A stretch of 32,000 nucleotides of DNA from an uncultured Clostridia bacterium (GCA_934130435.1 CAKOYB010000003.1:37994-69993), one strand, 5' to 3'. Positions 15,276 through 25,445 are shown, counted from the first letter of the stretch. The notes: a model not told the origin generated them from the sequence alone. Program-made: numbers and translations.

Positions 15276-16438
15276 TTAGTAATATTTAATACTAACTCTT
15301 TTTCCCATTAGTTCTAAGTTTTTTGAAAGTCTTTCTACTAATTTAAATTTTAACGTACTATCTATTGGTAATCCGCTATGTGCTTCGTTTACTGCTTGAC
15401 CCACAAAAAAGTTAACATCAGTTGCTTGTTCAAATAAAAAGTTTGCAAGTTGTGAAGCTCCATCCTTTTTCAAGAAATTCTTTGGTATATTACTATCTAT
15501 TTTTAAATACTCTTCTGAAAGTTCTATTAGTTTTCTTAAAGTTAATACCCCTTCTGTAGTTAAGTCTATACCTTTTATATACCCAATAGGTGGGATTTGG
15601 CTATCTATATAGTTCATATCGGTTTCTACTTTTTCATTTAAATAATTGGCTACAATTTGTGATGTTGTTCCCCCACATACAATCCTTATTCCGTCATTTC
15701 TTAGGAAATCTTCTACATATTTGTCACATTCTTCTCTTTTTACAGGCGGCCCAATCATAATATTCACTTTGCTTTCTTTTCTAATTTTTATTGCTGCTAC
15801 TGTTGTATCATCACCAGGCTCTCCCATATATAAAGCTTGACTAGAAGTTGCAAGTATATTTGCAACACATCTTGCTGACATTTGCGGTTTTATATTTTCC
15901 CTTAGGTAATCTATAATATCTTCTCTTTGCCACCCTAAATTTAATGTCTTTCCAATTCCGTGCATGTGGAACACCATCAGACATTAAAAGTATTATATCT
16001 TGATCATCTAATCTTAAATTTGTCTTATATATTTTTTTATTTAAAATGTTTAACTCTTTTCTTTCTAGTTCTTTTGGTTCTCCATTTGTAAAGAATATAC
16101 ACTTAGGATTATCAAATTCAAACATATATCCTTCTCCATCATTATTTATATGAATTACAGAGAATGTTGAATATGCCACTCCTCTTTCCCTACAGACAGG
16201 CAATGTTTGTACAATTGTTTCTATGCATTCTTCCATTGGAATATCATTTGATACCATAGTACTTAAAATTTTAGAAGTTAGAGTTGCTAAAATATTTGCT
16301 TTAACCCCGGCTTCCCATTCCATCTGCAAGCACTAATGTGGTATATCCATCCTTTTTTACAATAGAAACTTTATCTCCACAAAGCTCTTCTCCATATTTA
16401 TTAAATGATGTATAGCCATATTCAAGGAAAAGTCCCAT
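15276..16438 (-). pseudogene. PP2C/SpoIIE-type serine phosphatase, disrupted by two +1 frameshifts
   Basis: It is split over three frames. (1) 16438-16301 reads MGLFLEYGYTSFNKYGEELCGDKV...LADGMGSRG*. (2) 16329-15841 reads ...GVKANILATLTSKI...LLMSDGVPHA.... (3) 15977-15276 reads ...GIGKTLNLGWQREDII...KYY*. Removing one base near 16309 and one near 15960 restores a continuous DGMGSGVKAN...SDGVPHAGIGKTLNLGW protein. Its start overlaps the hydS stop (TAATG). Confidence 0.8.
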
Positions 16439-18138
16439 TATTTTTCTCCTTCATTATCTTCTTTTAATGTTTTTCTTAAATTAACTAATGCAACTTTAGC
16501 CTCTGCCGTTGTTTCTCCTAGAAGTGATGCAATTTCTTGCGCTACCCTCATTTGTTTTTTTATCACTTCGTCGGTTGTTGCAATAGTTTCTAGTTTCACT
16601 TCTTTTATTTTTTCATTATAATTAACTTTATCTGTAATGTCCTTCATAATTGCAAAAATCATATTATGTTCCTTCATATAATTAACTGATAATTCAATAT
16701 ATAAGTTTGTTTTTGAAATTTTAATTTGTTTTGAAAATACGTTTCTTTTTTCTGTAAGTGCTTCAATAAACTCAATATTTTCATCCATACAGTCAAGTAT
16801 TGAAGTTTCCTTTGGCTTAAATCTTTTAATTCCAATTAGATTCTTAGCTTTATTATTCATGTCTATTATGTTAAAATCTTTATCTATAACAATAATTCCA
16901 TTTGGACTATTTTTTATTATTTCATTAGACATATTCTCTGCTCTTTCTCGCATATATGGCAAACACATTTCTATATCTGCATATCCATTAATAACTGCCC
17001 ATGCTTTTTCTCTGCATGTTGAATATCCACATGCCCCACAGTTAAGTTCATCTTCTTTTGTATACTTTCCTGTTTTTGCTAATACTTCTTTTATTTGCTC
17101 TTCTGTAGGTTCTATATCATTAATGTTTTGTTTTTTATGATCATGTATAATGTTTATGCTTTTTTCTTCACTTAACTCTGTTTTTTTATCTATGCAAGAA
17201 TTATTTTTAACATAATTACGTATTTTAGAATTTGCAATTATTGCCGTATTATCTTTATTTAAACTACATGGACCATTAATGCAAGACCCTTGGCATGTAT
17301 TTAACTCAAGAAATACATTCTCTAGATTTTCTATACCTTTCAATGCTTCTTTACATCTTTCTACTCCATCTATAGCTATATATTCATATCCATCTATTAA
17401 TTTATCAAATGACTTGATTATTCCTCTGCTTATTGGAAAGAATCTTTCCTTGTTCCAGCTTACTTCTTCATTACTAGTTTTTTCTTCTATATTAATATTT
17501 TCTTCTTTAAATAGTTCAAGTAAATCTTCAAAAGTTAATACCCCATCTATTAATCCTGATTCTTTACATTCTTTTTTCTTTGCTATGCATGGTCCAATGA
17601 ACACAATTTTGCAATCTGGATTTTCTTCTTTTAAAATCTTTGCATGTGCAATTGCCGGAGAGTCAACTGGTGCCAAATATTTTAATGCATTTGGATAATA
17701 TATACTAATCATATTATTTACAGCTGGACAACAAGAAGTTATAAAGTTTTTATATTTTTTGCCTTTAAGCAGTTTTTCATATTCTTTAATAACTTTCTGT
17801 GCACCTCTTGCTGTTTCTTCGCCAAAAATAAAACCTATTTTTTTTAATGCTTCATTTATACTTGAAAAGTTTTTAATGTTAAAACTAGATACGAAAGATG
17901 GAGCAATACTTGCTATTACTTTGTTTTCTTTTAGTAAATTTTTAACTTCTTCTAATTCGCTATGAACTCTCTTGGCGTTCTGAGGACAAATTAATGTACA
18001 TTTTCCGCACAATATGCAGCGTTCTTCAATTATTTTTGCTTGATTTTTTTCTATTTTTATAGCCTTAACTGGACAATTTTTTAGACATTTATAACAATTT
18101 TTACATTTTGCTTCCTTAAACTCTAAATACTTTAACAT
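16438..18138 (-). CDS. hydS: sensory (group C) [FeFe]-hydrogenase with C-terminal Cys motif and PAS domain, copy 1
   Basis: 566 aa. Two N-terminal ferredoxin motifs (CKNCYKCLKNCP, CILCGKCTLICP). The H-domain motifs are TSCCP, GPCIAKKKE and NTCQGSCINGP. These are followed by CGACGYSTC-x16-C (Cx2Cx4Cx16C) and a PAS-like segment (NSPNGIIVIDKDFNIIDMNNKAKNLIG). This architecture matches that described for HydS of Thermotoga maritima. Confidence 0.85.
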   Translation of the reverse strand: MLKYLEFKEAKCKNCYKCLKNCPVKAIKIEKNQAKIIEERCILCGKCTLICPQNAKRVHSELEEVKNLLKENKVIASIAPSFVSSFNIKNFSSINEALKKIGFIFGEETARGAQKVIKEYEKLLKGKKYKNFITSCCPAVNNMISIYYPNALKYLAPVDSPAIAHAKILKEENPDCKIVFIGPCIAKKKECKESGLIDGVLTFEDLLELFKEENINIEEKTSNEEVSWNKERFFPISRGIIKSFDKLIDGYEYIAIDGVERCKEALKGIENLENVFLELNTCQGSCINGPCSLNKDNTAIIANSKIRNYVKNNSCIDKKTELSEEKSINIIHDHKKQNINDIEPTEEQIKEVLAKTGKYTKEDELNCGACGYSTCREKAWAVINGYADIEMCLPYMRERAENMSNEIIKNSPNGIIVIDKDFNIIDMNNKAKNLIGIKRFKPKETSILDCMDENIEFIEALTEKRNVFSKQIKISKTNLYIELSVNYMKEHNMIFAIMKDITDKVNYNEKIKEVKLETIATTDEVIKKQMRVAQEIASLLGETTAEAKVALVNLRKTLKEDNEGEK

Positions 18139-18149
18139 AAGAACCTCTT

Positions 18150-18392
18150 TTAAATTTTATTTATTACTTGTTTTTCAAAAATTTCTTCTATGGTTTCTGG
18201 ACTAACATTTGATATAAGTTTTCCATCTATTTCCATTGATACACCATTTGAGCAATTTCCTAGACAAAAACTTGCTTTAAGTTCTACCTTATCTCCTACA
18301 TTTTTTTCTTCAATTAGTTTTTTTAATTTTTGTACTACATCATATGATCCTTTTAAATGGCATGAACTTCCAACACATACCTTAATCTCCAT
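18150..18392 (-). CDS. thioredoxin-like [2Fe-2S] ferredoxin (NuoE/HndA-like), copy 1
   Basis: 80 aa with the Cys pattern CVGSSC...CLGNC. Confidence 0.8.
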   Translation of the reverse strand: MEIKVCVGSSCHLKGSYDVVQKLKKLIEEKNVGDKVELKASFCLGNCSNGVSMEIDGKLISNVSPETIEEIFEKQVINKI

Positions 18393-18472
18393 TTTTACAC
18401 TTCCTTTTCTTTTAAATTCTTTAATAATATTGATAATGAAGCTGATAAATCTTCATTTTTAATTGCTATATT

Positions 18473-24260: not shown

Positions 24261-24503
24261 TTAAATTTTATTTATTACTTGTTTTTCAAAAATTTCTTCT
24301 ATGGTTTCTGGACTAACATTTGATATAAGTTTTCCATCTATTTCCATTGATACACCATTTGAGCAATTTCCTAGACAAAAACTTGCTTTAAGTTCTACCT
24401 TATCTCCTACATTTTTTTCTTCAATTAGTTTTTTTAATTTTTGTACTACATCATATGATCCTTTTAAATGGCATGAACTTCCAACACATACCTTAATCTC
24501 CAT
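24261..24503 (-). CDS. thioredoxin-like [2Fe-2S] ferredoxin, copy 2
   Basis: The 80-aa translation is identical to that of 18150-18392. Confidence 0.8.
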   Translation of the reverse strand: MEIKVCVGSSCHLKGSYDVVQKLKKLIEEKNVGDKVELKASFCLGNCSNGVSMEIDGKLISNVSPETIEEIFEKQVINKI

Positions 24504-24583
24504 TTTTACACTTCCTTTTCTTTTAAATTCTTTAATAATATTGATAATGAAGCTGATAAATCTTCATTTTTAATTGCTATATT

Positions 24584-25126
24584 TTATGGCACCTTAAGTT
24601 CTATAGGTGCAAAATTCCAAATTGCTTTTATTCCACATTCAACCATTTTATTGCAAACTTCTTGTGCTGCATTTTGTGGAACAGTAATTATTCCTATATG
24701 AATATTCATTCTCTTAATTAAATCTTCCATCTTGCTTATATAAAATATTTTTCTATTATCACATATTTTTTCATTAGTATCAAAAGCAATTAAAATATTT
24801 ATATCATTTTCAAATCCATTGTAATTCATTAATGCTTGCCCTAGTTTTCCTGCACCTACTATCACTGCGTCTGTAGCATTGTTAAGATTTAAAAATTCCT
24901 CAATATCTTTAATTAAATCATCTATTTTAAAACCAATACCTGGTTTTCCTTCATTTTTACTTACTAGTGCTAAGTCTTTTCTTACCTGAATTGAATTTAA
25001 GTTAAGAAAATTAGACATTGTTGTAGAAGAAATAAATTTTATATTTTCTTCCTTCTTTTCTTTTAATATTCTAAGATATTTTGGTAATCGCTTAAGAGTT
25101 GCTTGTGATATATATACTTCTTTCAT
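24584..25126 (-). CDS. rex: Rex repressor with the same premature TAA, copy 2
   Basis: The 180-aa translation is identical to copy 1. The same in-frame TAA (24584-24586) is followed by the same 25-codon Rex-like tail. Confidence 0.85.
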   Translation of the reverse strand: MKEVYISQATLKRLPKYLRILKEKKEENIKFISSTTMSNFLNLNSIQVRKDLALVSKNEGKPGIGFKIDDLIKDIEEFLNLNNATDAVIVGAGKLGQALMNYNGFENDINILIAFDTNEKICDNRKIFYISKMEDLIKRMNIHIGIITVPQNAAQEVCNKMVECGIKAIWNFAPIELKVP

Positions 25127-25338
25127 AATTGCTCCTCGATATTATTTTATCGATTTTATATTAACATACCGTTTTTTATTTTTCAATATATTTTTTTAAA
25201 TTTTTATACAGTGTAAAATGTATAAAAAGATTGGCTTTTATTCTTGCCCATTTGAGTTTCCAAATGTAATGAAAAAACTTAACATTGTTGTATAGAAAAA
25301 AGCCAAGCTTTAGATCTCTCTTACACTTGACTCTTTTA

Positions 25339-25445
25339 TTAGTTAGCCTAATTTTTTATAATTTCAGTTGGTATTTTCTTTTTTTATGGCTATTTCACAT
25401 TTATTTTTACCATTATATTCTGGCATTTTATCCATATTTTCTAGC
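25339..25445 (-). pseudogene. decayed relic of the 3' end of a PHP phosphoesterase gene
   Basis: It aligns by eye to 19228-19345. The first 40 nt are identical except for TGG to TAG (W to stop, T25349). Beyond that the similarity is gapped (TATGGCTATTTCA / CATTTATTTTTACCATTATATTCTG versus CAATGGCCATTTCAATTCCACGTTTATTTTTACCATGATAATCTG). No intact ORF remains. Confidence 0.6.

Follow-up and report, generated by a model that had tools for sequence, protein, structure and literature searches.

In a chemostat study of Salmonella, junction microhomologies of about 8–11 bp or more were found to mark genuine spontaneous duplications and deletions (PMC3411829), and a class of bacterial duplications with 5–25 bp of microhomology has also been summarised (bioRxiv 10.64898/2026.05.22.727201). 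Here we have analysed a 32,000-nucleotide stretch of DNA from an uncultured Clostridia bacterium (GCA_934130435.1, CAKOYB010000003.1:37994-69993; hereafter the window, with positions counted from its first letter), in which two nearly identical copies of a 3-kb segment (X) carrying the genes rex, fd and hydS stand on either side of a different segment (U). We give a probability of roughly one half to the reading that X-U-X is a genuine segmental duplication carried by a single strain of a low guanine-plus-cytosine gut Clostridia species and generated by a microhomology duplication and a later homologous exchange. With the tandem duplications ascribed to microhomology (RecA-independent illegitimate recombination, microhomology-mediated end joining or template switching) the window shares the direct repeat and a joint from the end of the unit to its start on a 10-bp microhomology and, as in those cases, the parental single-copy arrangement is known and mobile-element genes are absent. 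It differs from them in having X-U-X only, with an upstream flank carrying nifS and nifU (nifSU) that is reached through an edge of homology. The class of rearrangement is an ordinary one, a duplication plus a recombination scar, not a new kind of mobile element, and the current understanding of recombination is unchanged by these findings.

Campbell-type cointegrates of plasmids and phages also have direct repeats of the region of homology around unique DNA. However, the window has no replicon, integrase or att site, the supposed insert is the native neighbour of the repeat in most strains, and private alleles appear in both copies (see below). Another related process, homology-facilitated illegitimate recombination (HFIR), is known in naturally transformable bacteria and was reportedly described in 2002 both by de Vries and Wackernagel and by Prudhomme et al. 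The window would resemble it in combining one homologous end and one microhomology end in DNA imported from another strain, whereas its illegitimate end lies inside the homologous region, giving a duplication rather than a replacement. As to gene content, one report (PMC5707799, citing Zheng et al., 2014) describes, for Ruminococcus albus and Thermoanaerobacterium saccharolyticum, putative H2-sensing [FeFe]-hydrogenases (HydS/HfsB) that cluster with hydA, adhE and a Ser/Thr kinase or phosphatase. Content and order (rex-fd-hydS(PAS)-PP2C-hydA-adhE) are shared with the window, which differs in that the regulatory part is duplicated, rex is cut by a nonsense codon and PP2C can be read only with frameshifts.

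Repeat architecture and native order

The initial annotation had described a near-perfect direct repeat of about 3.03 kb at an offset of 6111, with two mismatches near its right-hand end and an X-U-X layout, and all of this was confirmed. By base-by-base comparison the downstream copy X1 (16236–19267) and the upstream copy X2 (22347–25378) are direct repeats of 3,032 bp with an offset of 6,111, the same pair being returned by a repeat finder, and they differ at two positions only, 19176 (partner 25287) and 19238 (partner 25349). At the first of these the X1 allele is private to the window strain and the X2 allele is that of all contigs with the common arrangement described below; at the second, TGG (Trp) in the intact PHP gene of X1 stands against TAG in the X2 copy. 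Every gene in the window lies on the minus strand, on which all features are given here, and the order along it is nifS-nifU-[decayed PHP 3' remnant]-X2(rex-fd-hydS-PP2C')-FtsX'-small open reading frame (ORF)-zeta-PHP-X1-PP2C-hydA-adhE, the primes marking partial genes. X carries the promoter region of rex, then rex itself, fd and hydS, and takes in the first (5') part of the SpoIIE/PP2C phosphatase gene, PP2C. The 3,079-bp U (19268–22346) contains the C-terminal FtsX' fragment, a 75-amino acid (aa) ORF, a zeta-like kinase and PHP, as had been proposed, with Pfam and NCBIfam supporting the domain assignments.

The left boundary of X (16236 / 22347) is abrupt, the sequences below 16236 and below 22347 being unrelated to each other. 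X1 sits in a native setting, with PHP upstream and the rest of PP2C downstream, an order (PHP-X-PP2C) seen in nine single-copy contigs. X2 has nifU and the PHP remnant before it and the FtsX' fragment after it, and the contig on its upstream side (L010/L073) reaches 233 nt into X2 with the X2-specific alleles. A tandem array U-X-U-X was not seen, X2 being preceded by nifU and the PHP remnant and by no second U, which agrees with the earlier statement that this is not a plain tandem duplication. We found no inverted repeats of at least 40 nt in the window by repeat search, and no transposase or integrase domains by domain scans that included the flanking ORFs. The absence of transposase, integrase and terminal inverted repeats had been claimed before and stands. 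We reject an origin as a transposon, insertion sequence or integrative element, since neither terminal inverted repeats nor recombinase genes are present.

Contigs of the same species, 97.9–99.1% identical, were found by exact-protein look-ups in pig-gut and other metagenomes. Nine of them, from nine samples, cross both X boundaries and have a single copy, which follows PHP and precedes PP2C. In those that extend sufficiently on the upstream side, the order is HAD-HD-p431-p133-ABC ATPase-FtsX(981 aa)-small ORF-zeta-PHP-rex(206 aa)-fd-hydS-PP2C-hydA-adhE, which we call the common arrangement. Since nine single-copy contigs have U followed by X, U and X1 are in their native order, and U is the normal upstream neighbour of X. 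The look-up of a 45-aa ORF gave only common-arrangement contexts among the 10 matches listed. On a wider scale, the cluster rex-fd-hydS-PP2C-hydA-adhE is kept in the closest related species, hydS is followed by PP2C in about 59 loci, and gene content and order are conserved in about 60 related loci. U is not foreign to X: what the initial annotation called a unique cassette is the native upstream neighbour of X in nine other samples.

The novel joint

The only novel joint in the structure is the one from X2 to FtsX'. A three-way alignment of the fusion, PP2C and the intact gene for a 981-aa FtsX-type permease from a related strain (contig L003) places a 10-bp microhomology, GATATTCCAA, at this joint (22347–22356), and the PP2C copy of the 10-mer lies at 16236–16245. 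The parental PP2C reads ...AATGATATTCCAA|TGG and the parental FtsX ...ATAGATATTCCAA|ATG, and in the fusion PP2C sequence gives way to FtsX sequence over the common 10-mer. The reading frame is kept: PP2C has ...SNDIP|MEEC, FtsX has ...VIDIP|NVQF, and the fusion has ...SNDIP|NVQF. The junction k-mer of the fusion is GGTATCAAATGATATTCCAAATGTACAATT, and that of intact FtsX is GTTATAGATATTCCAAATGTAC. In each common-arrangement contig the 10-mer occurs exactly twice, in PP2C and FtsX only, 6,101–6,112 bp apart, and a joint placed at random in this DNA would have a microhomology of at least 10 bp with a probability of about 9e-5. Such a joint is the hallmark of an illegitimate event that duplicated or circularised a 6,111-bp unit of the chromosome.

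The resulting in-frame chimeric ORF (21355–22440) joins about 29–31 PP2C codons to FtsX residues 649–981 of 981, with the FtsX' fragment itself at 21355–22346. The cognate ABC ATPase and the N-terminal part of FtsX are absent from the window. A homologue search showed that FtsX' corresponds to one MacB-like module minus about 25 N-terminal residues, and the chimera is probably inert, because it has neither the first part of the permease module nor its cognate ATPase. The 359-aa form with an ATG start is called identically on contig L005 of the independent assembly ERZ27287399, the only source among the look-up matches listed, and the 361-aa form with a TTG start has no record in the exact protein look-up. 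The homologue search returned only relatives of at most 73% identity, and it listed neither the chimera's own cluster nor the 99%-identical full-length FtsX; it is therefore unable to count independent occurrences of the fusion. Exact-pattern scans of JGI metagenomes for the fusion joint and for the joint of nifU, PHP remnant and X gave 0 matches and are uninformative, as the organism seems to be absent there. Contig L087, which comes from another sample and is 98.4% identical, begins on the first base of the 10-mer, as it should if this joint is also segregating in a population with the common arrangement. Within FtsX'-small ORF intergenic DNA, Logan contigs, given as four from four runs (L006, L007 and L090 being named), start exactly at 21384, which could be a polymorphic site or a repeat.

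The upstream boundary of X2

On the upstream side, the edge of X has a different character. Directly downstream of nifU, positions 25379–25440 align with the PHP 3' end (19268–19340) at about 75% identity with five small indels in a gapped alignment, and BLAST homology past X2 runs to 25422. By this comparison the right boundary of X (19267 / 25378) is an edge of homology, not a junction, next to a decayed PHP 3' remnant. A recent deletion as the source of this remnant is rejected in view of the five indels and the roughly 25% substitutions against intact PHP.

X2 and the block DTD-Rrf2-nifS-nifU (25477–28200 by contig comparison) stand where the common arrangement has p431-p133-ABC-FtsX(N-terminal part), and homology with the common-arrangement contigs returns at 28196, the end of the HD gene. 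The order HD-DTD-Rrf2-nifS was found again in other samples at 96–100% identity, and in a related species the order is Rrf2-nifS-nifU-aldolase-rex-fd-hydS-PP2C-hydA-adhE. The interval from HD to the rex cluster (28196–22357 in the window, 3785–8724 in L003) is occupied in this species complex by two alternative blocks, either DTD-Rrf2-nifS-nifU-[PHP remnant] or p431-p133-ABC-FtsX-small ORF-zeta-PHP, and the strains with the second block have neither DTD nor nifSU at this locus.

Evidence from assemblies

The independent assembly (ERZ27287399; MEGAHIT, k=141), which may or may not share the sample of the window, has four contigs whose ends coincide precisely with the edges of the repeat. A 67.3-kb contig on the nifSU side (L010) ends at 25146, 141 nt past the inner mismatch; an X-core contig (L001) covers 16236–19175, stopping one base short of the mismatch at 19176; a U contig (L005) runs from 22487 to 19035, with 141 nt of the X end, the whole of U and 233 nt of the X start; and a 54.7-kb contig on the PP2C side (L096) starts at 16376, 141 nt inside X. 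Both flank contigs and the U contig match the window at 100% identity, and in run ERR7738611 the Logan contigs have their breaks at these positions too. Three sites at which two core contigs (L001 and L002) depart from the window, 17737, 18300 and 18705, could be real differences between the X copies. Reads thus contain the X-to-FtsX' joint as well as the two pairs of alleles linked to the flanks, and in the ERZ27287399 sample U is preceded only by X, with no edge from the FtsX N-terminal part entering it, X being found on both sides of U in every U-carrying molecule there. With the joint in reads and U flanked by X on both sides, a mis-join is excluded. The initial annotation had listed a simple assembly mis-join as an alternative, and this was contradicted by the independent k=141 assembly, which reproduces both U junctions (L005 covers the two at 100% identity, while L010, L001 and L096 end at the repeat edges).

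It is evident that these contigs can be arranged in more than one way. The graph is equally compatible with a chromosomal nifU-X-U-X-PP2C and with a single chromosomal X (nifU-X-PP2C) plus a separate 6.1-kb X+U circle or a variable tandem array, X-U-X then being the assembler's traversal of a loop. The four links, from the nifSU side to X, X to U, U to X and X to the PP2C side, suit both, and the identity of the core together with two mismatches close to the boundary is what a loop traversal would produce. However, a circle would be lost if it had no replicon, nine other samples have U in the chromosome, and without an FtsX N-terminal edge into U in the ERZ27287399 sample there is no other home for it; we regard a circle or array as quite improbable. 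A chimeric path through co-existing strains, giving an order found in no single genome, seems hardly credible at all. The metagenomic source would allow it, X is common to different strain types and the core contigs vary from the window at the three sites given above, but the X-to-FtsX' joint is in the reads whatever the mixture of strains and belongs to neither parental arrangement. Furthermore, the X-to-FtsX' and PHP-to-X joints together force at least two X copies on one replicon, or a circle.

Divergence, private alleles and origin

We have measured divergence as mismatches per 400 bp to the closest common-arrangement contig. U, which is collinear with these contigs, has 0–3, X has 1–5 and the PP2C and hydA genes 1–4. 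Values then rise to 4–8 in the 5' part of adhE (1 in one interval), 7–12 in its 3' part and 18–28 in the region of the APH, CotF and CAP genes (6 in one interval, where a single contig gave coverage). Upstream, divergence is about 2% at HAD-HD and 4–5% at BroN. Judged from these values, the window looks like a backbone diverged by 5–6% with a central tract of about 12–13 kb like the common arrangement. Alleles absent from all common-arrangement contigs number 4 in U and 12 in X. Eleven of the latter are found in both copies, including the rex stop codon, and the twelfth (19176) in X1 only. Private alleles shared in this way are more readily explained by sister copies from a single duplication than by crossing-over between two different strains.

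These patterns bear on the Campbell-type integration proposed in the initial annotation, for which the topology is possible and the rest less well supported. A 6,111-bp circle of U+X derived from common-arrangement DNA would have entered the resident X of a nifU-X-PP2C chromosome by a single crossover, after closing at the 10-bp microhomology either by excision or by end-joining of an incoming fragment. The end topology would be identical, with direct repeats bracketing the inserted DNA, circle closure would yield the X-to-FtsX' joint, and the nifSU flank does come from a different, more diverged backbone than U. On the other hand, X+U has no replication, mobilisation or integration gene by Pfam, NCBIfam or PADLOC, match searches found no plasmid or phage relative of U, and a non-replicating circle would have to pass between strains. 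Differences between the strains would also be expected across X, and instead 11 private alleles are common to both copies and only the last 92 bp differ, an objection that fails only if gene conversion or assembly collapse has erased the differences. We consider this integration unlikely.

A one-step event of the HFIR type would be very unlikely indeed. A linear common-arrangement fragment (FtsX'...PHP-X-PP2C-hydA-adhE'), anchored by homology in hydA/adhE, would have joined the recipient PP2C at the microhomology with its far end. This has the merit of being a single event by a known mechanism that uses microhomology, and the tract resembling the common arrangement does extend from FtsX' into adhE. 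Yet the 3-kb X of the donor is homologous to that of the recipient and should recombine there, leaving no duplication, and the alleles of X2 (recipient) and X1 (donor) should differ throughout, which is not the case.

The history that we favour, duplication on a microhomology followed by homologous exchange, is the best model and the most economical, covering the sister-like identity of the copies, their shared private alleles, the confinement of mismatches to the last 92 bp and the divergence gradient. In a first step, illegitimate recombination between the two copies of the 10-mer (in FtsX and PP2C, 6,111 bp apart) in a common-arrangement chromosome would have linked X, at its end, with the beginning of U, producing a head-to-tail duplication of the 6,111-bp U+X unit and the in-frame PP2C'-FtsX' chimera; the joint is observed, and its mechanism we infer. 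Only X-U-X is present, without U-X-U-X, and the nifSU flank meets it at an edge of homology; therefore a second, homologous exchange is needed. In this second step, which the divergence patterns suggest, X-U-X-PP2C-hydA-adhE' would have moved by homologous recombination into a more diverged backbone with DTD-Rrf2-nifS-nifU-[PHP remnant]-X, the exchanged tract ending upstream where homology runs out at the PHP remnant and leaving the two mismatches at the extremity of X2. The outcome would be nifU-X2-U-X1-PP2C, with two copies of the module rex(truncated)-fd-hydS and with the chimeric ORF, small ORF, zeta and PHP placed downstream of hydS copy 2.

Several points weigh against this history. It requires two events with an unstable intermediate between them, and we have recovered neither a pure nifU-X-PP2C genome of the species nor a donor bearing an entire U-X-U-X array. 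Divergence changes in steps, without a sharp break, and below 12.7 kb its gradient is based on only 1–4 contigs, and the coincidence in the start of L087 is indirect. Both mismatches lie at most 141 nt (one k-mer) from a boundary, and the identity of the 2,940-bp core is therefore what the double threading of a collapsed repeat node gives; this perfect identity may have been created by assembly construction. The core contigs do vary from the window at three sites, and the evidence consists of contigs, so that a twofold depth of X and the linkage of nifU-X-U-X-PP2C in one molecule are presumed.

If the proposed history is right, the locus is a clean natural example of a 10-bp microhomology making both a duplication joint and a gene fusion, and of how homologous exchange between diverged gut lineages can then carry such a joint into another backbone. 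The dosage of a regulatory module that lies ahead of hydA and adhE and is putatively H2-sensing would be doubled, and this could shift the control of fermentation in the strain. For genome curation, it illustrates how a 3-kb repeat appears in the graphs of short-read metagenomes, where perfect identity of copies is not to be trusted at face value.

Genes of the locus

The two rex copies, recognised by the NCBIfam Rex model, encode 180 aa each (18473–19015 and 24584–25126) and carry the same nonsense mutation: codon 181 is changed from AAA to TAA (18473–18475 and 24584–24586), removing the last 26 residues. All common-arrangement contigs of other samples encode the full-length Rex of 206 aa, and the 180-aa form has no record in the exact protein look-up. 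Scans for a Rex-operator-like pattern, promoters and terminators gave matches no commoner than in shuffled controls. The fd copies (18150–18392 and 24261–24503) encode a 2Fe-2S thioredoxin-like ferredoxin (Pfam/NCBIfam), and hydS copy 1 (16438–18138, 566 aa) has a [FeFe]-hydrogenase H-domain, an FeS domain and a PAS domain, with copy 2 at 22549–24249 (Pfam/NCBIfam). The remainder of the PP2C/SpoIIE phosphatase gene (15276–16235) is found downstream of X1 only, and is followed by hydA (13802–15259) and adhE (11215–13818), both from domain scans, which also gave nifU (25477–25917) and nifS (25919–27100).

In U, the gene of the PHP-domain phosphoesterase (19228–20121; PF02811), for which gene callers give a 293-aa product starting at 20109, has its last 13 codons within X1. 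It is preceded by a kinase of 318 aa with a Zeta_toxin domain (20124–21080; PF06414, E = 1.3e-22) and a Walker A motif, GAGKT, whose protein sequence is identical in at least seven other contigs. The 75-aa ORF (21070–21297, from the ORF list) overlaps the zeta start by 11 nt and has no significant family match in Pfam, NCBIfam or PADLOC. The zeta protein scores 30.8 bits with the PezT model (cut-off 470 bits) in the NCBIfam/Pfam scan, and PADLOC assigned none of zeta, the small ORF, PHP and the chimera to a defence system. A Zeta_toxin domain with a Walker A motif and a preceding, overlapping small ORF is the gene layout of the epsilon/zeta type. On these features the pair looks like a toxin-antitoxin module, with the small ORF as a candidate antitoxin. 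The gene of the zeta kinase is broken into two ORFs in certain other strains of this species (L087 1278–2223 and L089 596–1315), as is hydS (L086 3211–4918 and L089 3540–5241), which suggests that decay is under way in part of the population.

Direct repeats of 3 kb should recombine by RecA-mediated loop-out and delete U, and one may speculate that a working pair of small ORF and zeta could counter-select this loss and hold the duplication. That the strain is a stable merodiploid locked by the pair, with loop-out deleting it and the cells that lose it being killed, is a doubtful proposition; in its extreme variant, X+U may be a self-maintaining 6.1-kb episome without a recognisable replicon. 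Were such a lock true, the second rex-fd-hydS module would be durably kept, transcriptionally fused to PP2C'-FtsX', zeta and PHP, and the locus would be a natural case of an addiction module preserving an unstable duplication until its copies diverge.

Beyond the cluster, the DNA downstream of adhE is ordinary chromosome (glycogen phosphorylase, HlyIII, ABC exporters and CotF), and upstream of nifS we find genes for Rrf2, DTD, HD, HAD, a GNAT acetyltransferase, BroN and LigT. A second structural difference between the window strain and the common lineage appears downstream of the CAP/SH3 gene (about 8915 and below), where the genes that follow in the window are those of two ABC exporters, HlyIII and glycogen phosphorylase, and a 53.5-kb pig-gut contig (L082, 19497 onward) has priA instead.

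Frameshift sites in the PP2C gene

The most interesting by-product of this work is an apparent pair of CGG-associated +1 sites in the PP2C/SpoIIE gene, which can be read through only with two +1 shifts, each skipping an extra C before a Gly codon. Site 1 is AGC-C-GGG (..ADGMGS|GVKAN..), at 16303–16311 and again at 22414–22422 in X2, and site 2 is GCA-C-GGA (..PHA|GIGKT..), at about 15957–15965, both on the minus strand. The zero frame has a CGG codon at both sites, and usage of this codon is 0 in 7,880 codons across 24 genes of the window and, in the closest relatives, 0–1 for every 5,000 codons or so. All contigs of the species have site 2. Site 1 is common to the two closest species representatives (L012 and L022), the gene being in frame in 54 of the 54 other scorable related loci. 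Along the 43 codons upstream of site 1 change is mostly synonymous (11:5, 13:5 and 8:1). The gene looks like a case of programmed +1 frameshifting at an unused, 'hungry' CGG codon, not a dead pseudogene.

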